64,000 nt of DNA from Escherichia phage vB_EcoM-Ro157lw, in the sequence record MH051335.1. One strand, written 5' to 3'. The position numbers were made by a program, and so were the translations under genes. This document shows, piece by piece, positions 44,249-53,967 of this stretch (its first letter is position 1; each line of letters opens with the position of its first letter). Under the pieces are notes generated by a model that saw nothing but the letters and a program-made list of their open reading frames with translations, made no database searches and was not told the DNA's origin.

Positions 44249-44667
44249 GACAATTCCTCTAAATACTTGATGATGTGATGGATGGACCCGCTCGCGGCGA
44301 CCATATCCAAAATCTCACCCTTAGTATATTCTTTTAATCGCAATGAAGGGTGAACTAAATAATAAGCCTTTTCAGAATCTACCTTCAGCAGCACAAATGA
44401 CGAGAACTTCCAATCATTCCAAGAAGTCAAAAAGCTTTGTTGGCCTTTCTCAAATGCACTTTTAAAAGGAAGAGTGGTGGCCCTTGCAGGCCACGATTCA
44501 AAAAACTTCATTTCAAGCCAAAAGCCGCGCCCTTTCCGGTTGGTGCCGATTACATCCGGCACACCATCACCCGTCATGGATTCGATTCTTTGAAGCTTCA
44601 GTACTGATTCTGAATGCTTCTTCAAAGGAACGAAAATGTATTTTTGTTCACGGTTATTTGTTGCCAT
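44245..44667 (-). CDS. VRR-NUC domain nuclease
   Basis: PD-(D/E)xK-type motif GVPDVIG...WLEMK; paired with SNF2 helicase. Confidence 0.6.
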   Translation of the reverse strand: MATNNREQKYIFVPLKKHSESVLKLQRIESMTGDGVPDVIGTNRKGRGFWLEMKFFESWPARATTLPFKSAFEKGQQSFLTSWNDWKFSSFVLLKVDSEKAYYLVHPSLRLKEYTKGEILDMVAASGSIHHIIKYLEELS

Positions 44668-45310
44668 CTGGATACACCTGTTTGATCACGTCGACTATAA
44701 ACATGTCAATGCCTTCAAGCTTTCGACCTTTCATCAGGAAGAATGCACCGTTCCCGACGTTCTCTGCAATGTATTTCCCGTATTTCTGGAACTTCTCTGG
44801 ACGAATCCTGAAGCGCATTGGCGAGTCGGTCGAGTCGTCCTTGCACATAAGGTCGATGAACTGAGTTTCAAGCTTGTTTCCATACTGATCAAACTCTGCG
44901 TAGCGGCCATCGGCCTGAAGACCCTTTTTAAGCTTGCCGTGCTTTGTATAAATGCCGCGCTCAAGACGTTTACGGATGCGTGTTGCTTCGTTCTCGTCAG
45001 CCAGCACTTTCTTGGTCAACTTGCCGATTACTATTGCACGCTCGTCATCGCCGACTTCCTTCATCTGACGTATTGAAGCACCGGAAGTAACGCCAATCAG
45101 ATAGGGGTCATTATACGCCCAGCCAAACTTGGTGTGCATCTCTGTAAGGTCGCCGTATTTGACTTCAGCATTGGCCAATGCATCCTTTTGTTTTTGCGTT
45201 AAGGTTCCGGCTTCACGTGCTTCGATGTACTTCATCGCTTTCACCATTCCGTACCCTTTAGCGTTCATGATGCCGCCAATTAGCTTTCCGTTAGCGATTG
45301 GCCAATGCAT
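44654..45310 (-). pseudogene. C-terminal fragment of the DnaE-like polymerase, separated from the main ORF by a frameshifting 127-bp tandem duplication
   Basis: N-terminus repeats the last 42 aa of ORF 45291..47678 (IANGKLIGGIMNAKGYGMVKAMKYIEAREAGTLTQKQKDALAN); no usable SD at its ATG. Confidence 0.65.
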
Positions 45311-45424
45311 CCTTTTGTTTTTGCGTTAAGGTTCCGGCTTCACGTGCTTCGATGTACTTCATCGCTTTCACCATTCCGTACCCTTTAGCGTTCATGATGC
45401 CGCCAATTAGCTTTCCGTTAGCGA
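45171..45424. repeat. perfect tandem direct duplication, 2 x 127 bp (45171-45297 and 45298-45424)
   Basis: Identical copies read directly; consistent with the ORF-track break. Confidence 0.9.
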
Positions 45425-47678
45425 TGGTCCAGTTCATTGAAGAGTGATCAGGGTCGATTGGCACATAATCCACGCCTTCCTTTGCAAGTTCACGTAATAT
45501 CGCAATCGTCTGGTCTTCGTCCTTGGCAGCGCGTAAGCAAGCAGCGGCAAATTCCAACGGATAGTGTCGTTTAAGCCACAAGGTCCAGTAGGTCACGACC
45601 GCGTATGATACGGAGTGTGACTTGTTAAATCCCCATGACCCGAACGTCGCCATTGCTTGCCAAAGCTTTCTTGCATCAGCTTCCGGTACGCCGTTATTTA
45701 TTGCGCCTGCAACGAAGTCTTCGCCAAGCTTGTTAAAGTATTCCTCACCCTTACGGCCTGACATCGCCTTACGTACAGCGGATGTCTTCGCCCAGTCAAA
45801 TGAACCAATCTCTTTAACCACGGCCATGATTTGCTCTTGGTAAAGAAACACGCCGTAAGTCTCTTTTAAGTACGGCTCAAGCTGCGGCACGTCGTACTCA
45901 ATCGGCGCACGTCCTGCCGCGCGTTCGATGTATTTCTGGGCCATACCGGATGACAACGGGCCAGGTCGGCCAAGTGCTGTCAGGTTATCGATTTTGTTAA
46001 AGTTATCAACGTGCACAAAGTTGGTTACTGAGCGTACAGCGTCGCCTTCGAACTGGAAGATTCCTGACATCTTATTTTCGTTAAGGATGTCAAGGACGCT
46101 TTGATCATTGAGCTTGATTCCGTACAGTGTTTCAGCATCTATCACGCCAGTATCAGAAATGATGCCGAGGGTACGAAGGCCCAATGCATCAAGCTTCAAA
46201 AGGTTAAGGTATTCGCTGTCAGGCTTATCAATTTGTGCAATCCCTTCCGCCGTTACCGTACAGTAATCAGAGATTGGATCATTACACACGATGATTCCCG
46301 CTGCGTGAACGCCAGTGTGGGAAGGGTGAATTTCAAGGTCACCCATGCATCGCGCGGCATCAGGATATTTAGCCACAAACTCTTGGCCCGTGGTCGTTGT
46401 TGCAAAGGTGTCCTCCAGGCCGTGGCCATAACGGGCGTCACCGGATGAGTATTCAAGCAATGCGTTTTTAATGTTGGCCGTTTCGTGATATCCAATGTTG
46501 AATTTCTTACCAACCTGAGCCATTACTGAGTTGGCCTTAAGCGTGTTGATGTTGCCAAGCTTTGCAACGTTCATTTCGCCGTATTTTTCTTTAAGGTAAT
46601 CAAACACCATATAGCGTTTGGTATCCTCAAAGTCAATATCAATATCAGGAAGGTCTGCGCGGCTTACGTCAATGAATCGGGCAAACAGTAGCTTATACGG
46701 GATTGGGTCAACTTCCGTGATGCCGAGGCAATAACAAACCAGTGAACCAGCCGATGAGCCGCGAGCGGGTCCGACGAGCATTTTTGTTTTTGCGAATCGT
46801 ACAAGGTCCGCTACCACCAGAAAGTATGAGTCGAAATCTTTCAGCTGAATCTGGTGAATCTCTTCGTTGAATCGGTCCTCATATTCCTGAGTCCATTCTT
46901 TGATGTGGCCTGCCTTAAGGCGGTACTCCATCCCCTCACGAGCAAGCTTTACCATGTCACCAGCAAGGTGGATAATCGGTGCCTTGCGCAGCTTCAGGTC
47001 AAGTCCCACGATTCCGTTTGCAATGTCAACTGCATTGGCCGTTGCTTGATTCAACTCATCTTCGGTCAATATTCCTTTAAGCTGTTTGCGCAAGTCTTCC
47101 GCGTCAACGATACAGTGCGGCTTGACCGTGTCGCGCACTTCCCAAGCATAAGCAAAGTCAACGTGCTCAGGTGAAGGCATGTGGTTGTATCCGGTTAAAA
47201 CCAGCGGCCTTCCGTTGCTGCGGTGAGCCAATACCTGGCGCTTGGCCAAAAGGAACGATGATGGGTTGACGTCTATATAATCGTAGTCCTCTGGCCGCAG
47301 CAACTCCACGGCCCCGCCACAGAATTTAACGACGCCATCGAGCGCCCCGAACTCTGCACGGGTCAGTCCGCCGCGCTGTGTTGCAAGCGTGGTCGCGTTG
47401 TAAAAGGATTTCAGGTCAAGCGCCAATATCCAAGCCTTCGGTTTGAATCCCTTTTTCGGGTCCGCATCAGGGTCGATGATTGGAATTTCCATGCCGAACA
47501 TAGGCTTAATATCATTTTTCTGGCACTCCTTTTCCCATCGAACGTGACCCCATGTATTGTTATCAACTAATGCCGCGACTTCGCAGCCCAACTCTTTGAG
47601 CCGTGCTATAATTTCAGGATGCCGTCCATATACTTCTTTGAACGTGTAACCGCTGCGAACTCTCAATTGTGGAAACAT
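45291..47678 (-). CDS. dnaE: DNA polymerase III alpha-like (DnaE, C-family) catalytic subunit, interrupted at its 3' end
   Basis: Motifs GPARGSSAGSLVCYCLGITEVDP, GIFQFEG, FNKSHSVSYA; PHP-like N-terminus. Confidence 0.8.
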   Translation of the reverse strand: MFPQLRVRSGYTFKEVYGRHPEIIARLKELGCEVAALVDNNTWGHVRWEKECQKNDIKPMFGMEIPIIDPDADPKKGFKPKAWILALDLKSFYNATTLATQRGGLTRAEFGALDGVVKFCGGAVELLRPEDYDYIDVNPSSFLLAKRQVLAHRSNGRPLVLTGYNHMPSPEHVDFAYAWEVRDTVKPHCIVDAEDLRKQLKGILTEDELNQATANAVDIANGIVGLDLKLRKAPIIHLAGDMVKLAREGMEYRLKAGHIKEWTQEYEDRFNEEIHQIQLKDFDSYFLVVADLVRFAKTKMLVGPARGSSAGSLVCYCLGITEVDPIPYKLLFARFIDVSRADLPDIDIDFEDTKRYMVFDYLKEKYGEMNVAKLGNINTLKANSVMAQVGKKFNIGYHETANIKNALLEYSSGDARYGHGLEDTFATTTTGQEFVAKYPDAARCMGDLEIHPSHTGVHAAGIIVCNDPISDYCTVTAEGIAQIDKPDSEYLNLLKLDALGLRTLGIISDTGVIDAETLYGIKLNDQSVLDILNENKMSGIFQFEGDAVRSVTNFVHVDNFNKIDNLTALGRPGPLSSGMAQKYIERAAGRAPIEYDVPQLEPYLKETYGVFLYQEQIMAVVKEIGSFDWAKTSAVRKAMSGRKGEEYFNKLGEDFVAGAINNGVPEADARKLWQAMATFGSWGFNKSHSVSYAVVTYWTLWLKRHYPLEFAAACLRAAKDEDQTIAILRELAKEGVDYVPIDPDHSSMNWTIANGKLIGGIMNAKGYGMVKAMKYIEAREAGTLTQKQKDALANR

Positions 47679-48220
47679 TATTTACTCCAGATGTCATATA
47701 CGCCAATTTGTTGGCAGACTTTGTGCAGTAATATTACGTCGTCTAATGCACGGTGCTTCTGTTCATATTTTCCGAAATATAATTCATACAGCTCTTGAAG
47801 CTTAACTCTTCGGCCAAAAATAGGCAAGGTTTGCTCGACTGTACAAATGTTTATTTCTGGAAAATTAACATCACCAAGTGTAAGACCTTCGCGCTGTAAT
47901 GCATAATCAAGGATGTTCTTATCGAATGCATGGTTGTGCGCGATAGTGGCATCAGTCTTCTTGAAGATGTCTTTTAGTTGCGGAACGAAATGAATAAAGG
48001 GTGGATTGCACTCAAGGTCTTCATTGGTTAATCCGGTAATCTTTGTGATGATTTCTTCAATCACAATTTCAGGATTAATTATGAACTCGAACGTTTCAAG
48101 AATCTCTTTGCCGTCCGTCAACAGGCCTGCAAATTCAATAGGGCGCGGCTGCATCCCAAGCGGTGCTTTCGGGTGCACGGTTAATCCGGTTGTTTCGAAG
48201 TCATAAGGGAGAAATAACAC
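47678..48220 (-). CDS. DnaQ-like 3'-5' proofreading exonuclease
   Basis: Exo I YDFETTGL, Exo II AHNHAFD, Exo III HRALDD; GTG start with AGGAGG SD. Confidence 0.8.
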   Translation of the reverse strand: MLFLPYDFETTGLTVHPKAPLGMQPRPIEFAGLLTDGKEILETFEFIINPEIVIEEIITKITGLTNEDLECNPPFIHFVPQLKDIFKKTDATIAHNHAFDKNILDYALQREGLTLGDVNFPEINICTVEQTLPIFGRRVKLQELYELYFGKYEQKHRALDDVILLHKVCQQIGVYDIWSK

Positions 48221-48273
48221 ATTGGCCTCCTACAAAAGGCCGCCCATTAGGACGGCCACAGATTCAAGATTCG

Positions 48274-48825
48274 TTATGCAGTGTACGGAGTACCATCTTG
48301 ATTCAACCGCACGATGAACTTAAGGTCGACGCCGATGATTTCACGCGTATCAAAGATCACATAGTTGTAACGACGCTGACCAGCAATATTTGGGTTGGTG
48401 TGAGAGTCAGTTACAACTTCCTGCGCAACCTGAATGCCTTCTTCTTTAAAGAACTTGCGCCATTCAGCGAGTTCAGCGGCAGTCACGTGCATACCAAGAT
48501 GGCTAACCTGATTGTCGTGTGCATCAATATATTCGATGTTTTCGTTAATCCAGTTGCGACCTTTCGTGTAGTCAAGAATTTCAAGTTCAAGAGGCTTACC
48601 AGCGCCGCCATCGGTGCCGTTGCCAGCTTGATAGTTGAAGCGCAAGTCAGCTTCGTTGGTGCAATCGCCGCGCTGACCTTTAAAGTCATCAGCTTCAAAT
48701 ACGCGACCAGTAGCAACAACATGATCATGGAACCATTCTGTCAGGCCGATTTTAGCCAGAAAATCCTGTGCGCGCTGAGCATCTGGAATTGACAGGGCGA
48801 TTTGTTCAATTTTAAAGTGTGGCAT
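48274..48825 (-). CDS. VOC/glyoxalase-fold protein (tentative)
   Basis: N-terminal pattern KIEQIALSIPDAQRAQDFLAKIGL. Confidence 0.35.
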   Translation of the reverse strand: MPHFKIEQIALSIPDAQRAQDFLAKIGLTEWFHDHVVATGRVFEADDFKGQRGDCTNEADLRFNYQAGNGTDGGAGKPLELEILDYTKGRNWINENIEYIDAHDNQVSHLGMHVTAAELAEWRKFFKEEGIQVAQEVVTDSHTNPNIAGQRRYNYVIFDTREIIGVDLKFIVRLNQDGTPYTA

Positions 48826-48845
48826 TTTGTTTCCTTAATTAAATA

Positions 48846-49016
48846 TTATTGATTAATTACTGTGTTGCCTTCGATGGAATAAGTCTCAATGGAACCGACG
48901 CGCTCGTGGTTAATCTTTGCGTTTTCGATTCTTATTACTTCAAATCCAACGCCTTCTTGATCAATCTTCACTTCTGCCACGTCGCCAATCACTTCTACAA
49001 CAACTTTGATAGTCAT
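48846..49016 (-). CDS. small hypothetical protein (56 aa); below ORF-track size cutoff
   Basis: ATG 3 nt downstream of SDR stop; GGGAAA SD-like. Confidence 0.35.
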   Translation of the reverse strand: MTIKVVVEVIGDVAEVKIDQEGVGFEVIRIENAKINHERVGSIETYSIEGNTVINQ

Positions 49017-49019
49017 GAT

Positions 49020-49703
49020 TTATTTCCCAAATGGAATATCAGTACCAGACATAAAGCGCCATGCGCCCGTAATTAAGATATGGCGAATGAAGTCAGCAAT
49101 TACTTGCGGCTCAGTCTCCAATCCGTTCATCAATGCCTTTTTCTGGTATTCAGCGGCATACTCAGGAGTCCAGCCGCGAGTCGCGCAAACAGCATCTTCA
49201 ATCTGTTTGGACATGCCAGTACCACGTAGCTTGTTAGGACTAATAGAGAATACCGTGATCCCGTATTTAGGCGTAAGCTCGTGAGCCATCTGCTTGCTAA
49301 TCATAAGCGCAGCAGCCTTGGATGCATTATAACACAAGCTGGACGTCATAGGAATATGCGCAGCATTAGAAACGATATTGATCACAAAACCTTTGTTGTC
49401 GATAAGACTTTTCAGCGCGGCCTGAGTCGTGTTGACGAAAGAGAAGGCGTTGGTGTGCATAACGCGATTGAACTCTTCGTAGTTAACATCTTCGAACCAG
49501 TTGTTGGAGTTGACGCCAGCGCAGTTGATCAAGCCTTCTACGTCGTATTGAGAGAGAAGCTCTTTCATCTGTTTCGCGTTACGGATGTCATAGCCGTTCT
49601 CCAAATCAATACCGACAACTTCATGACCGTAAGCGCCAAGGGTGTCAAAAATGGATTTACCAAGACCGGAATTGCAGCCAGTTACAACAATTACTTTTTT
49701 CAT
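49020..49703 (-). CDS. short-chain dehydrogenase/reductase (SDR)
   Basis: TGxxxGxG (VTGCNSGLGKS), NCAG, YNASK catalytic motif. Confidence 0.7.
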   Translation of the reverse strand: MKKVIVVTGCNSGLGKSIFDTLGAYGHEVVGIDLENGYDIRNAKQMKELLSQYDVEGLINCAGVNSNNWFEDVNYEEFNRVMHTNAFSFVNTTQAALKSLIDNKGFVINIVSNAAHIPMTSSLCYNASKAAALMISKQMAHELTPKYGITVFSISPNKLRGTGMSKQIEDAVCATRGWTPEYAAEYQKKALMNGLETEPQVIADFIRHILITGAWRFMSGTDIPFGK

Positions 49704-49724
49704 TTATTTATCCTTTTTGGACTT

Positions 49725-49758
49725 CGTTTCGATGAGATAAATATAACTCATCGAAACG
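49725..49758 (-). promoter_or_regulatory. 12-bp perfect inverted repeat CGTTTCGATGAG / CTCATCGAAACG with 10-bp spacer in the SDR gene leader
   Basis: Direct reading; 13-mer TTCGTTTCGATGA also at 42666-42678. Confidence 0.5.
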
Positions 49759-49768
49759 CACAAGTAAA

Positions 49769-50641
49769 CTATTTATTGAAATTAATATTATGGGTGTTAA
49801 CAAGACGTTCACACATGGCGCTGTAAACACCATCATCGTGTATAGAGTCTTCGTGCTTCAGGCCGCTGATTGCGAAGCGTGTAAGCTTGACAATCTTAAG
49901 CTCGAACAGATGCCACATGTGGTAGTCTTCCGGCGTTTTCAACGTCACGCCATTAGGGAAAAGCACTTGCATAACCTGACCTACCATCACAGCGTTATCG
50001 CCATAGACAGCGTTGCGCTCACGGAAGGTTGCTGCCATTGCATCAAGAATATCGGCGGCAGTTGCCGGAGATTGTTCAACTTCCACAGCCTTAGTCTCTT
50101 CTTGCCCTGTTGCGCTTGGATCAATTGCTAATTGTTGCACCACTTCACCTGCCTTGCAAAGATTAAATGTAAAAGCGATTTTATTTTGAGCAACGGAATT
50201 ATAATACAATGCTTCATCTTGCATCCGCGCGAGTACGTCTTGTCGGTCGTCGAATACATTGATGATTCGATAATCGCCGTGCCGCAATGCGTGCGATAGC
50301 CATGCAGATTTCATAATAGTTGATGGACGTTTGTCGCCATAGTCTCTCATCTTGATTGTAAATTCATCAAAAGGAAAAACATTATCCAGACGTTCAAAAG
50401 TCACTTGTCTGTATTTTTCTGGCCTTGCAGTCCAATATTCAACCGCCTCACCGCGAAGAGATGCCGACTCTACTGCTGATGCAATGTGAGGATAGAACTG
50501 ATCATAACCAATACCGCTGTGATAGTCATCATAGTCTGACGACGGACCTGCCACCTTTATGCGGTCTAAGCGCCAACGGTCATCAAACAGCGTTCCGTCA
50601 AGGTCGAATACATTTAAGATTTCGCTGTTTTTAATGCTCAT
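49769..50641 (-). CDS. HAD-superfamily phosphatase-like protein with extra C-terminal domain
   Basis: Motif I VFDLDGTLFD and later DD motif. Confidence 0.55.
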   Translation of the reverse strand: MSIKNSEILNVFDLDGTLFDDRWRLDRIKVAGPSSDYDDYHSGIGYDQFYPHIASAVESASLRGEAVEYWTARPEKYRQVTFERLDNVFPFDEFTIKMRDYGDKRPSTIMKSAWLSHALRHGDYRIINVFDDRQDVLARMQDEALYYNSVAQNKIAFTFNLCKAGEVVQQLAIDPSATGQEETKAVEVEQSPATAADILDAMAATFRERNAVYGDNAVMVGQVMQVLFPNGVTLKTPEDYHMWHLFELKIVKLTRFAISGLKHEDSIHDDGVYSAMCERLVNTHNINFNK

Positions 50642-51468
50642 CCTTTTGATACTCCATCTTTAGCAACTGGATTGTTGGTGATTGGCATCGCACTCCAAAA
50701 CTGGATGCGCAACTCTTCTTGCTGTGCCGTGGTATCCATCCAATCACGATACCAAGGGCAATGGGCTTTGCCATGACGAGGAAACGCGCATTTACCCATA
50801 CCGATGCATTGCGGCTGTAATAATGGATTTGCCCACGGGTGCACCTTGAGGACTTCCGCAACCATTGCGCGGAATACTTCTTGATACTCGCCTTGAGTGC
50901 GCGTGCACAAGCGGTTTGACGCCATCTGCTGCAGCGTGCGCAAGTTGAACTTTGCCATGATATGCGTTTGCATATTAGAAGGCAACACGGCACGTGCATC
51001 TTGAATCTCTGCGCCAGCCGCGCGAAGCTCTTGATACAAAGCATCGATAGTCGCCATCGCATCATCCCACTTCTCTGCTAAGTATTGCTTTTGAAGTAAA
51101 GATTGGTGCTCTTCATCAGTCCCAAACGCTTCACATTGATCAATCAACTCTGGATTTTGGTGTGAGAATGCCTTCGGACGAATCGCATCAAATGCAGACG
51201 ACTCCTGAGCGCGGCTGGTACGTTCTTGATATGCGCCTGTGCGTGTGCGCACCATCTGATGGGTCATGTTCTTTGAAACATCGGTGATGTCAAAGATATA
51301 GTCCACAAAGTCAAAAGGCGACTTGATTGTATCAAGCATGTAGCGCCAGTGCTCTTGCTTCTCTGATTCCGTCATCTCAGAGACAGGCTTGCCAGTCATG
51401 CGCGTGTTCTTTGTTTCCAGCAAAAGGTCAAGTGCATCTTGGGTGTATCGAATTAATTTAACTTTCAT
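50638..51468 (-). CDS. ThyX-like flavin-dependent thymidylate synthase homolog (divergent RTR in place of RHR)
   Basis: VRTRTGAYQERTSR aligns to the ThyX RHRxxxxxxxS region. Confidence 0.5.
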   Translation of the reverse strand: MKVKLIRYTQDALDLLLETKNTRMTGKPVSEMTESEKQEHWRYMLDTIKSPFDFVDYIFDITDVSKNMTHQMVRTRTGAYQERTSRAQESSAFDAIRPKAFSHQNPELIDQCEAFGTDEEHQSLLQKQYLAEKWDDAMATIDALYQELRAAGAEIQDARAVLPSNMQTHIMAKFNLRTLQQMASNRLCTRTQGEYQEVFRAMVAEVLKVHPWANPLLQPQCIGMGKCAFPRHGKAHCPWYRDWMDTTAQQEELRIQFWSAMPITNNPVAKDGVSKG

Positions 51469-51481
51469 TTTAATTATCCTA

Positions 51482-51928
51482 TTAACGGTAGTTCACTAGT
51501 TGCTGATCACCAGAGAAGGTGCAATGATAAACAAATTGTGCATTATAAAGCAACTGAAAACTTTTCTTTGGTTCACTATTAGCACTCATCGATGTGAATA
51601 CTTCTGCACCGGAACGGTTTTCACCGATTAAGTTGACAAAGCCGCCAGTTGTGCGAGGTTGAACGAAAGTGAAACGTTGCATCCACGGAGTCCGGTTGAC
51701 ACCTTTTCCGGTGAATCCTTGAATCTGAATATTCAGACCTTCTTGCTCATTCACACCGATGTAAGTGGTAATCTTCGCACCAGTCGTTGCTGCGGTCTTA
51801 CCGTCCATCGCTTCGCAATCATAAACAGCGATTGAATCGGAAGTACGGATGGCAGCTTCAGTCGCTTCCATATACATGGTGCCGAGAATAGCAGTTGCGG
51901 CAAGCGCGATTCCAGTGATTCGTTTCAT
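51482..51928 (-). CDS. secreted protein (signal peptide, two Cys)
   Basis: N-terminus MKRITGIALAATAILG. Confidence 0.5.
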   Translation of the reverse strand: MKRITGIALAATAILGTMYMEATEAAIRTSDSIAVYDCEAMDGKTAATTGAKITTYIGVNEQEGLNIQIQGFTGKGVNRTPWMQRFTFVQPRTTGGFVNLIGENRSGAEVFTSMSANSEPKKSFQLLYNAQFVYHCTFSGDQQLVNYR

Positions 51929-51993
51929 TTTCGTTTCCTCTATGAGTTCTGCTTCAATGATTAAAGTATACGCCCATTGAAGCAGAAAGCAAA

Positions 51994-52989
51994 TTATTTA
52001 TTAGCAATATAAGCAAATTTTTGATAGTTATTTGCTTTGATGAGTTTTTCAACTTCAACAAGATCATGAGCGACGTCATCAAGCAAAATGTTTCGCCAGG
52101 TAGCAAATCGACCGACACTAAACACGTTCAAATCCATAGTCAGCTGCAGGAGTAAGGCGTGTCGCAAGTCTTTCGGAATGTCGACAATCTTTCCATATTT
52201 CTGGTCGACCTTTTCAACTTCTTCAAGAGCGATGTCACTCCATGAGAGGCCAAATGCCGTCAGCACCTCGTCGACTTCTGCGCGCAGCTTGATGTCACGG
52301 TAACGAGTGATGCCGCCAGCGGCTTCAACTGCAGCTTCACTTACGCTGACCAAAGGAATTGTTTCAATGATAAGCGTGTCACCAGTAATTGATGCGCGGT
52401 AAGTTCTGACGGAGTAGTCAGGGAAGTAAATTGTCTGATACAAATCACACTTACGTTTAATCTTAAAGCGGTAAACACGAATGTTTGCTTTATCAAATGA
52501 GAAATCAAGCTTTTGATCAATCCCAGCCAGCTTCATCATGACTGGCAGCGGCGACGTGTTGATGATTGGCGTCTCGCTATAGCCGCAAAGAGTATCAACC
52601 GGAGTATTAAAGAATATGCGGTCACCCAGTTTGTCGACAAGCTGATCATAAAAGTCATCAGGCGCAATATAACGCGTTGCAGTCTTAAGATTCATGATTG
52701 AACGGCTGCCAAACTGATTGGTGACCTTCATGGAATACATATTGGCAAGGTTGATTGGGCAATGGTCGTGGTAGTAGTTGCCGCGAAAATACACAGCCTT
52801 GTCAACTGTCACTGCCTTAAAAGGGATTCCGGTAATACGGCTTACTTCTTCGCCACGGAAGCGTAGCAGCGCCTTGTGCTGTTGCGCTCGCTCCCCTGCT
52901 TCGTACACAACAGAGTTCGGGAAGTGACACGCTGTGATAAGTCCTGCCAATCCGCCGCCGATAATCATTACAGGTTGTTTCATGTTCAT
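51994..52989 (-). CDS. FAD/NAD(P)-binding oxidoreductase (possibly UDP-galactopyranose-mutase-like)
   Basis: N-terminal GxGxxG MIIGGGLAGL; C-terminal GRFATW motif. Confidence 0.5.
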   Translation of the reverse strand: MNMKQPVMIIGGGLAGLITACHFPNSVVYEAGERAQQHKALLRFRGEEVSRITGIPFKAVTVDKAVYFRGNYYHDHCPINLANMYSMKVTNQFGSRSIMNLKTATRYIAPDDFYDQLVDKLGDRIFFNTPVDTLCGYSETPIINTSPLPVMMKLAGIDQKLDFSFDKANIRVYRFKIKRKCDLYQTIYFPDYSVRTYRASITGDTLIIETIPLVSVSEAAVEAAGGITRYRDIKLRAEVDEVLTAFGLSWSDIALEEVEKVDQKYGKIVDIPKDLRHALLLQLTMDLNVFSVGRFATWRNILLDDVAHDLVEVEKLIKANNYQKFAYIANK

Positions 52990-53121
52990 TTGTCCTTTGT
53001 GGGTGATATGAGAAGTATAATAGCTAAATTATTTTACAGCAACAAGTCATTTTATTTAGTACAGATGAAAAAAGACCCACAACAAGTGTGGGTCAATTAC
53101 CGCTGCATAACCGTCCTAAGG

Positions 53122-53967
53122 TTATTCCGCTTGATCACCGTCTTCGGCATCTTCGTTGGATTCAACATCGACAAACTCGATGTGGCCCATCTCTTCCAGC
53201 TTGCTCAGGTAGGAGCGAACGGAAGCGCCAAACAGTTGATCTTTAACTTTTTCGCCCAGCTCATCGATAGACTGCGCCACGCCAACTTCGCCTTCTTTGA
53301 TCGCCGCCAGAACGCGTCCACGGGTGGAATGCTCTTGCGGCTGGCTCAGGCCATTGCCAGTGTAGATGAAGTGGGTTGCTTTTGCGCGACGCTGACCGTT
53401 TGCCTTTTTAGCAGCCTTACGTTCTGCGATGGCTTTGCGACGTTCTTCAGCTTCTTTCTTACGCTGTTCTTTCTGCTTTTCTGCAGCTTCTTTAGCCGCA
53501 ATCTTAGCAGCTTCACGCTCTGCCTTGCGTTTCGCTTTAGCTTCTTCTTTGGCCTTCTCTTTTTCGGCCTTCGCTGCAGCACGGGCTTGATCACGCTCTG
53601 CTTTCTTAGCAGCAGCTTGTTCAGCTTTCAGGCGCTTGGCTTCTTCTTTGGCCTTTGCCTTTTCGATTTCTTTTGCTGCTTTAGCGGCTTCACGCTCTGC
53701 TTTCTTAGCAGCTGCTTTTTCTGCACGCTCTTTGGCTTTCTTCGCTGCTTCTTCAGCACGTTTCTGTGCTTTCTCATCAGCGGCCTGCTTGCGTTTCAGT
53801 GCAGCTTCTTCACGCTTGGCTTGTTTTTCCTGCTCACGCTTCTGGCGTTTTTCTTCGGCTTCTTTCTTTTTAGCCAGGCGTTTTTCTTCAGCCACGCGAC
53901 GACGTTCTGCTGCAGCTGCTTGTTTTTCTTCTTTAGATAATACTTTGATTGCTTCGGCCATATTCAC
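53122..53967 (-). CDS. Lys/Glu/Ala-rich charged-helix protein with C-terminal globular domain
   Basis: ~190 aa of KAE-rich low-complexity sequence; AAGGA SD; same strand as all neighbours. Confidence 0.6.
   Translation of the reverse strand: MNMAEAIKVLSKEEKQAAAAERRRVAEEKRLAKKKEAEEKRQKREQEKQAKREEAALKRKQAADEKAQKRAEEAAKKAKERAEKAAAKKAEREAAKAAKEIEKAKAKEEAKRLKAEQAAAKKAERDQARAAAKAEKEKAKEEAKAKRKAEREAAKIAAKEAAEKQKEQRKKEAEERRKAIAERKAAKKANGQRRAKATHFIYTGNGLSQPQEHSTRGRVLAAIKEGEVGVAQSIDELGEKVKDQLFGASVRSYLSKLEEMGHIEFVDVESNEDAEDGDQAE

Follow-up and report, generated by a model that had tools for sequence, protein, structure and literature searches.

The subject of this study is the gene cluster at positions 48274-52989 of a 64,000-nucleotide stretch of Escherichia phage vB_EcoM-Ro157lw (sequence record MH051335.1); the whole stretch is called the window below. 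We read this locus as the long form of a phage module for flavin-based, sugar- or polyol-type hypermodification of thymidine in the phage's own DNA, and we put the probability of this reading at about 0.55. A preliminary description, made from the sequence alone, had suggested a nucleotide-modification module. This suggestion is supported in part: the module is real and conserved, and relatives that carry its core have a sugar-type thymidine hypermodification, for which its genes are candidates. The seven co-directional minus-strand open reading frames (ORFs) named in that description are all present at their positions, and their content does exceed the needs of dTMP synthesis. The notion of a seven-gene module has to be narrowed: six parts in five genes are conserved, while the 56-aa and 148-aa ORFs are found in Wifcevirus only. 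From the first gene to the last, the conserved parts are a flavoprotein resembling UDP-galactopyranose mutase (UGM), a divergent ThyX-like flavoprotein, a HAD phosphatase domain fused to a four-helix domain, a short-chain dehydrogenase/reductase (SDR) and a VOC-fold protein. All genes and hairpins of the window located below lie on the minus strand.

A megablast search with positions 48274-52989 returned 28 phage records with 92-98% identity and 93-100% query coverage. Each is from a myovirus of the genus Wifcevirus with E. coli or Shigella as host, the best being FEC19 (98%). The UGM-like family reaches much further, with 1986 proteins in a collection of 5.8 billion proteins, 361 phage records and 480 confirmed IMG/VR stretches. 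For a survey of the module, the 80 best viral loci were fetched and searched with the window proteins and with divergent homologues. Gene order and strand are unchanged in 79 of these 80 loci, at only about 40-60% protein identity, and this shared arrangement is far beyond chance. Components were counted only in those 45 loci that extend 6 kb or more beyond the UGM-like gene on its downstream side. The ThyX-like gene is present in all 45, the four-helix domain in 44 and the HAD domain in 43. The exonuclease and the DNA polymerase III alpha subunit (Pol III alpha) follow downstream of the module in 44 of the 45 complete loci. The genes upstream are variable, with Dda in 21/45 loci and a Lys-rich gene in 22/45. 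The SDR and VOC genes occur together in 33 loci and are both absent from 11; the VOC gene stands alone once and the SDR gene never. These two genes are one unit, gained and lost as a pair.

Phages of E. coli, Serratia, Xanthomonas, Xylella, Pantoea, Rhizobium, Cronobacter and Pseudomonas carry the module, as do hundreds of metagenomic contigs, so that the modification itself may be widespread. Together, the UGM-like, ThyX-like and HAD proteins recur in the Cronobacter podovirus Ss1 (42 kb), and the same three with the four-helix domain recur in metagenomic phages of 40-47 kb and in Rhizobium jumbo phages of 206 kb. Pam3_Gp34 and DUF7307 (Pam3 gp33-like) proteins are common to Wifcevirus (locus L002, 31652-33129, Bas99_0039 and Bas99_0040) and to module-bearing contigs of 40-47 kb (locus L010, 1544-2846). 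This suggests that phages which differ in other respects have replication regions descended from one source. In a single locus, on an IMG/VR contig of 55.9 kb (L069), the UGM-like gene adjoins the ThyX-like gene, and no HAD, four-helix domain, exonuclease or Pol III alpha gene is found within 10 kb; this is possibly an independent transfer of the flavoprotein pair alone.

Chemical data exist for the Pbunavirus genus of the related PB1-like myoviruses, which carries the module in the same place and order as the window. The identity to the window proteins is 40% for the UGM-like protein, 48% for the ThyX-like protein and 27% for the HAD fusion. The Pbunaviruses F8 and 14-1 have a short module of UGM-like protein, ThyX-like protein and HAD/four-helix fusion and lack the SDR and VOC genes that make up the long form in the window. 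Their virion DNA contains a novel nucleoside, of 362 Da in F8 and of 390 Da in 14-1 (PMC12191111, a 2025 END-nuclease preprint). The two nucleosides were read as a tetrose sugar-alcohol derivative and a cyclic pentose derivative, respectively, and are located at TG (PMC12191111). In both DNAs the T:A ratio is below 1, with about a quarter of T replaced, and enzymes with TG-containing sites are resisted (PMC12191111). The authors stress the absence of known modification genes, and the responsible genes were left unidentified (PMC12191111). We found no paper in the literature that assigns genes to the Pbunavirus modification. In the F8 annotation, the module encodes the only named enzymes able to act on a sugar or a pyrimidine base. 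The remaining annotated genes are for ligase, MazG-like protein, helicases, polymerase, exonuclease, primase, lysis and structural proteins. Between F8 and 14-1 there is no difference in gene content within the module, and only the linker of the HAD fusion is notably diverged.

The ThyX-like protein (50638-51468, 276 aa) is annotated as thymidylate synthase in all public records. It matches Pfam Thy1 (PF02511) with 103.9 bits (E 1e-29) against a cut-off of 24.8, which bears out the earlier call of a ThyX-like protein, but its score to the NCBIfam equivalog for thyX (TIGR02170) is 79.8 bits, below the cut-off of 87.9, and the protein is divergent. The ThyX signature RHRxxSxxxxSxRY is not kept, and the window protein reads RTRTGAYQERTSRA. 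Compared with T. maritima ThyX (TM0449, PDB 1O26 family), its substitutions are H79->T, S83->A, S88->T and Y91->A. We aligned the whole clade, with members from Wifcevirus, Pbunavirus, Ss1, the Rhizobium phages and metagenomic contigs. Throughout the clade R74 is replaced by H, H79 by T or N (RTR or RNR in place of RHR), S88 by T and Y91 by A, I or V. The Thy1 fold is shared with the T. maritima enzyme, and so are Q75, R78, R80, R90, R147 and R174 (T. maritima numbering), which are conserved across the clade alignments and which we take to be the nucleotide- and FAD-binding residues of ThyX. Because the alignment keeps these binding residues, the ThyX-like protein has probably retained the binding of FAD and of a nucleotide of the uridine type. 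The PB1-like lineages (Wifcevirus, Myosmarvirus and Pbunavirus) add a C-terminal extension to the T. maritima plan, with conserved C188, C221, C227 and C237; it is absent from Ss1, the Rhizobium phages and the 40-47 kb contigs. A site for a metal or an Fe-S cluster could be formed by these four cysteines (residues 188-237).

The first gene of the module encodes the UGM-like flavoprotein (51994-52989, 331 aa), which falls into phrog_4828 ('unknown function'). The preliminary description had called it an FAD-binding Rossmann enzyme; the FAD Rossmann fold is there, and the assignment can be refined to UGM-like specifically. The closest solved fold is that of UGM (Glf, PDB 4DSG and 1I8T), with the UGM fold and its FAD-binding Rossmann domain both present. 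No Pfam family, GLF and NAD_binding_8 included, was matched even at E <= 10. Sequence searches of the PDB with the single protein and with a profile gave nothing past the GxGxxG motif, the profile matching the first ~25 residues. Similarly, when the family profile was compared with E. coli Glf by hhalign, the alignment stopped after the first 20 residues. Beyond this, only a C-terminal GR[LF]A motif can be aligned with Glf by eye. In this alignment by eye, N300 takes the position of Glf Y346, the UDP-binding Tyr of the E. coli enzyme. The UGM-like and ThyX-like proteins are alike in this respect: they resemble UGM and ThyX in fold, and each departs from its namesake in at least one defining sequence feature. 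In UGM, N5 of the reduced flavin attacks C1 of the sugar and a flavin-sugar iminium is formed.

The third conserved gene (49769-50641, 290 aa) matches phrog_4889 with E 1e-121. It had been described as a HAD-like phosphatase with an extra domain, and both halves of this call hold. The N-terminal part (50132-50641) is a HAD phosphatase domain of the PNKP-phosphatase type, matching HAD_PNKP over residues 11-142 (33.7 bits against a cut-off of 27.6, E 5e-8), with an intact DxDxT motif (FDLDGTL). The C-terminal part (49772-50086) is an independent, very conserved domain of ~100 aa, confidently predicted as a four-helix bundle. In phage contigs of 40-47 kb the HAD and the four-helix domain are separate genes, the stand-alone four-helix protein being 60-70% identical. 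The two are fused in Wifcevirus, Pbunavirus, Myosmarvirus (with a large insert) and the Rhizobium jumbo phages. In Ss1 the HAD protein carries a DUF3310 domain in place of the four-helix domain. The four-helix domain is the most conserved component of the module, with 15 invariant residues that are mostly polar; our searches with it returned no known identity.

The two genes of the optional sub-module encode the SDR (49020-49703, 227 aa) and the VOC protein of glyoxalase/dioxygenase fold (48274-48825, 183 aa), the last module gene. The SDR is a classical one, as had been proposed. It matches adh_short with 110 bits (E 1e-31), has both the TGxxxGxG (VTGCNSGLG) and YxxxK (YNASK) motifs, and has FabG-type reductases as its closest solved structures (E ~1e-12). 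It is absent from Pbunavirus, as is the VOC protein. The VOC assignment is weak for the window protein taken singly (Glyoxalase_4, E 8e-4, 20.1 bits, below the gathering score of 27), but it is consistent across the family, in which 17 of 36 homologues match Glyoxalase_4 (best E 9e-6). A metal could be bound by the invariant residues Q8, E82, H109, H142 and D167. No solved relative of this protein was found by sequence or profile search.

In other lineages, further enzymes are nested in the module. ORFs without assignment between the conserved genes of the 80 loci were clustered and then scanned against Pfam. A pyrimidine-dimer DNA glycosylase domain of the T4 endonuclease V type is found between the ThyX and HAD genes in a cluster of 14 loci and in one more locus (L075, 6401-6919, for instance). 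A second HAD_PNKP protein occurs in seven loci and a Zn-ribbon/HTH protein in seven. A radical SAM-SPASM enzyme and an FkbM methyltransferase sit exactly between the SDR and VOC genes (L076, 5179-6859), and a 570-aa carbamoyltransferase sits between the UGM-like and ThyX genes (L093, 10915-12627). A SAM methyltransferase is present in short-form modules (L086, 12402-12974). Homing endonucleases are also among the nested ORFs, and in one contig a weak match to Nmad5 ('nucleotide modification associated domain 5') adjoins ThyX. Phage hypermodification clusters have been described as following this plan, with a constant core to which each lineage adds tailoring enzymes of its own (PMC8989533).

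We infer that the module is responsible for such a modification, and the enzymatic steps would be as follows. The product would be a sugar- or polyol-substituted thymidine, that is a C5-modified deoxyuridine, shielding the phage DNA from restriction. The ThyX-like flavoprotein would carry out the chemistry at C5 of the pyrimidine and at a one-carbon unit or exocyclic methylene. The UGM-like flavoprotein would activate or present the sugar. The HAD phosphatase and the four-helix domain that is tightly coupled to it would dephosphorylate a nucleotide or sugar-phosphate intermediate. In the long form only, the SDR and VOC proteins would tailor the chain by oxido-reduction and by metal-assisted isomerisation or epimerisation. 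Precedents exist in ThyX, TrmFO and MnmEG, which pass a folate methylene via a flavin-N5 iminium to uracil C5 and form an exocyclic methylene there (PMC8989533 and established knowledge). This methylene is then reduced to a methyl group or captured by a nucleophile, such as glycine in cmnm5U (PMC8989533 and established knowledge). The proposed chemistry is reasonable because of these precedents and the flavin-iminium of UGM.

The masses of the Pbunavirus nucleosides agree with two kinds of adduct. An ether or glycoside on 5-hydroxymethyl-dU gives 258 + 122 - 18 = 362 and 258 + 150 - 18 = 390. A carbon-linked dU gives 362 with a 1-deoxypentitol-1-yl (tetrahydroxypentyl) group and 390 with a C-hexosyl or 1-deoxyketosyl group. 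A more specific proposal, which we consider doubtful, is a flavin-only route to sugar-substituted thymidine that is used by no described pathway, in one of two forms. In form (a), the ThyX-like protein would form 5-methylene-uracil, or re-form it from T by oxidation, and a hydroxyl of the sugar or polyol would capture it instead of hydride. In form (b), uracil C5 would attack the flavin-N5-sugar iminium of the UGM-like protein, and the 'methyl' carbon of thymine would be C1 of a pentose or hexose. The products of form (b) would be 5-(tetrahydroxypentyl)-dU (362 Da) and C-hexosyl- or 1-deoxyketosyl-dU (390 Da). In the long form of the window, the SDR and VOC proteins would tailor the chain further.

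Wifceviruses are restriction-resistant without a known mechanism, and the thymidine modification, if true, would account for this. The Wifcevirus Bas99 has 19 EcoRI, 4 EcoRV, 5 EcoKI and 89 EcoP1I sites. If T in TG is protected, selection against restriction sites should pass over those that contain TG. Of the 64 palindromic hexamers, 14 do not occur in the window, and TG/CA is present in none of the 20 most depleted palindromes (hypergeometric P = 8.5e-4). The 16 TG/CA palindromes are near expectation, with a median log2 observed/expected (O/E) of -0.26 against -0.96 for the others in a first-order model (Mann-Whitney p = 0.014), and of 0.00 against -1.12 in a third-order model (Mann-Whitney p = 4.5e-4). 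The same pattern is seen in Bas99. In lambda, the negative control, there is no TG contrast (p = 0.6-0.9). This palindrome signal for TG protection is suggestive only. A clean split between TG and non-TG palindromes was considered and rejected, since many AT-rich non-TG palindromes are also not avoided and the avoidance of GC-rich ones is stronger. Over the whole window, the avoidance of restriction sites is very strong, and the absent hexamers include GGATCC, GAGCTC, GGTACC, CTCGAG, AGCGCT, CGATCG and GCTAGC. GATC occurs 117 times against ~260 expected, and the BsaI site GGTCTC once against ~18 expected. TGATCA, GTCGAC, AAGCTT and AATATT are over-represented about 2-3-fold over the first-order expectation.

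Several points weigh against a thymidine hypermodification by this module. No experiment so far links the module genes to the modification, and we found no base analysis or restriction digest of Wifcevirus DNA in the literature. The UGM-like proteins of F8 and 14-1 are 97% identical and the ThyX-like proteins 94%, despite the different adducts, so that what determines the adduct may have to be sought outside these two proteins. A partial replacement that is restricted to TG implies that some step takes place on DNA, and none of the short-module proteins has a recognisable domain for DNA binding or base flipping. F8 DNA is cut by EcoRI (PMC12191111), so that a modification at TG only leaves the resistance of Wifceviruses at non-TG sites such as EcoRV unexplained. 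In the palindrome analysis, the positive control F8 has only a TG trend that is not significant (p = 0.06 to 0.4), and the TG signal is confounded by the stronger avoidance of sites containing CC/GG and CG. About 75% of Pbunavirus T is ordinary (PMC12191111) and needs a supply. The ThyX-like protein keeps the nucleotide-binding arginines and could simply make dTMP. Furthermore, one and the same Pol III alpha replication block is found in all carriers, and part of the collinearity may thus be due to common descent.

The main rival explanation is that the locus serves ordinary nucleotide supply and holds passengers besides. A plain ThyX would boost dTTP for very fast replication, the HAD protein would be a nucleotidase or an end-healing phosphatase, and the UGM-like, SDR and VOC proteins would be unrelated to it and co-inherited with the replication block. 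The strong Thy1 match with the conserved Q75, R78, R80, R90, R147 and R174 speaks for it, as do the position inside a block of replication and nucleotide metabolism, the Pol III alpha, exonuclease and helicase genes common to all carriers, for which common descent is possible, and the label of thymidylate synthase in every public record. Left unexplained would be the UGM-like partner that the ThyX clade has in all 45 loci, at ~40% identity and while the upstream genes change, as well as the way in which SDR and VOC come and go as a pair, and the inserted tailoring enzymes. It would explain neither the clade-wide loss of RHR and Y91 with an equivalog score below threshold nor the source of the Pbunavirus sugar-thymidine. 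We consider this explanation rather unlikely.

Two other functions do not need modified DNA, and both are very improbable, the second slightly more so. The target could be a free nucleotide or nucleoside, modified for signalling or inhibition, or it could be RNA. PolB of polyoxin biosynthesis, a ThyX-like C5-methylase of UMP, is a precedent. The ThyX fold acts on mononucleotides and the phosphate-binding arginines are kept here, a nucleoside could be set free by the HAD phosphatase, and no DNA-binding domain is visible in the short module. This does not sit well with the invariable link to a replicative polymerase and exonuclease, with the modified T in the virion DNA of short-module carriers, or with the DNA-glycosylase-like genes nested in the module in ~15 loci. 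The second function, already raised in the preliminary description as an alternative, is a role in sugar nucleotides or at the host surface. The UGM-like, SDR, VOC and HAD proteins would remodel a nucleotide sugar, for example UDP-galactofuranose, and so alter lipopolysaccharide, O-antigen or capsule or provide a glycosyl donor for a non-DNA target. UGM is the closest solved fold, sugar pathways often hold SDRs and phosphatases, and the O16 O-antigen, which contains galactofuranose, is a receptor needed by Wifceviruses. Yet neither a glycosyltransferase nor a nucleotidyltransferase nor an extended nucleotide-sugar SDR was found, and the SDR of the module belongs to the FabG type, which is classical and short. 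The module does not change between phages of Pseudomonas, Xanthomonas, Serratia, Rhizobium and Cronobacter, the surface glycans of which are unrelated, and it is invariably tied to ThyX and polymerase. The lack of a Pfam GLF or NAD_binding_8 match and the Asn in place of Glf Y346 (by eye) also count against this role. Hypermodification of thymidine is the reading we prefer.

The locus is part of the leftward replication block of the window. The block runs from a RecD/Dda-like helicase through a Lys-rich protein, the seven ORFs, a DnaQ-like exonuclease and a DnaE-type Pol III alpha to helicases. Terminator-like hairpins on the same strand flank all seven ORFs (53094-53074 and 48257-48238). The upstream one (53074-53094) has an 8-bp stem followed by TTTTTT and ends the preceding Lys-rich gene. 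The downstream one (48238-48257), with an 8-bp stem of which 7 pairs are GC, closes the module upstream of the exonuclease gene. Terminators are annotated at both equivalent places in the curated record of phage Mansfield. Two ORFs inside these boundaries are outside the conserved module, and among the 80 loci they are present only in the three from Wifcevirus. The 148-aa ORF (51482-51928) is a genus-specific insert and matches no family. It had been described as a secreted protein and part of the module; its N-terminus, MKRITGIALAATAILGTMYMEATEAA, is indeed signal-peptide-like, with a charged start and then a hydrophobic stretch, but it does not belong to the conserved set. The 56-aa ORF (48846-49016) is a genus-specific filler between SDR and VOC, with no family match and no relatives found outside the genus. 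In Serratia phage Hera a small ORF also lies between SDR and VOC; it is unrelated to the 56-aa ORF.

The neighbouring genes show some features of their own. The gene at 53122-53967 encodes a Lys/Ala/Glu-rich protein of 281 aa (phrog_4765) with a globular C-terminal domain, which is named 'putative structural protein' in JG024 and Hera. It is found directly upstream of the module in myovirus lineages (22/45 loci) and may be a DNA-associated virion protein. On the other side, the exonuclease (47678-48220; RNase_T, E 3e-21) and Pol III alpha genes together span 44654-48220. The Pol III alpha gene contains a perfect tandem duplication of 127 nt (45170-45296 = 45297-45423). Because 127 is not a multiple of 3, the gene is split into ORFs of 795 aa and 218 aa, which repeat the same peptide of ~42 aa. 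In Mansfield and Bas99, Pol III alpha is a single gene of 965 aa. The length of 127 is the largest default k-mer of SPAdes, which points to an untrimmed overlap of a circular contig, and an assembly artefact of this kind is the likeliest origin of the duplication.

The module is the best candidate for the source of the modified thymidine of Pbunaviruses, and the locus provides a short list of concrete genes. Pbunaviruses belong to the most widely used phages of Pseudomonas therapy, and it is only recently that their DNA was found to be hypermodified, with no genes assigned to the process. The modification may escape annotation pipelines, as the genes bear labels such as 'thymidylate synthase', 'FabG-like reductase', 'polynucleotide kinase' and 'hypothetical'. 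A flavin-based chemistry would be a new enzymatic way of decorating DNA bases, and a flavin-iminium or oxidative route, if true, would be categorically new.

A comparison with known hypermodification systems (M6, ViI, PaMx11, PhiW-14 and SP10; PMC5889632, PMC8989533) shows both likeness and difference. In those systems too, the product is a C5-substituted thymidine that blocks restriction, and a conserved core is joined by lineage-specific tailoring enzymes (radical SAM enzymes, flavoenzymes and transferases). Their chemistry and the one proposed here both pass through an exocyclic methylene on C5 (PMC8989533). However, the known pathways use ThyA-type dUMP hydroxymethylases, 5-hmdU DNA kinases, aGPT-Pplase transferases and PLP enzymes, and they append amino acids or polyamines, not sugars. 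Among the module proteins, no ThyA-type dUMP hydroxymethylase, 5-hmdU DNA kinase, aGPT-Pplase/amino-acid:DNA transferase or PLP enzyme was detected. This agrees with the preliminary description, which had seen none of the ThyA-type hydroxymethylases, kinases and PLP enzymes; none is annotated in close relatives either. The genome-wide annotations of Bas99 and Mansfield list no known hypermodification enzymes, and a scan of ten larger unannotated proteins gave no domains of such enzymes. A TET_JBP dioxygenase and a glycosyltransferase, as in a route of the base-J type, were neither annotated nor detected, with the small hypothetical proteins only partly scanned. The module would be a phage DNA hypermodification cluster with a different enzymology, and the enzymes by which the known clusters are recognised are not among its members.

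The carbon-linked option has a natural parallel in Bacillus phage SP-15. Its base is 5-(4',5'-dihydroxypentyl)uracil, with a polyhydroxy-alkyl chain carbon-linked to uracil C5 (PMC5977210). Titles cited in that source report the entry of ribose label into the chain and a synthesis of the base that takes place at the triphosphate level (PMC5977210). SP-15 has no BLAST-level homology to the window module and no UGM-like gene in the 90 kb examined; its domain set is analogous only, and its gene assignments are themselves hypotheses. The FabG-like SDR gp129 abuts a very divergent Thy1 protein, gp130, and the HAD phosphatase gp135 is nearby (L096, 30026-36106). A second atypical Thy1 protein, gp9, has KYR for RHR and a 47-aa insert, and it adjoins a deoxynucleoside kinase and a cupin-type sugar-phosphate isomerase (L095, 5512-7790). 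By arithmetic, tetrahydroxypentyl-dU, which has the 362 Da mass of the F8 nucleoside, is the fully hydroxylated analogue of the SP-15 base.

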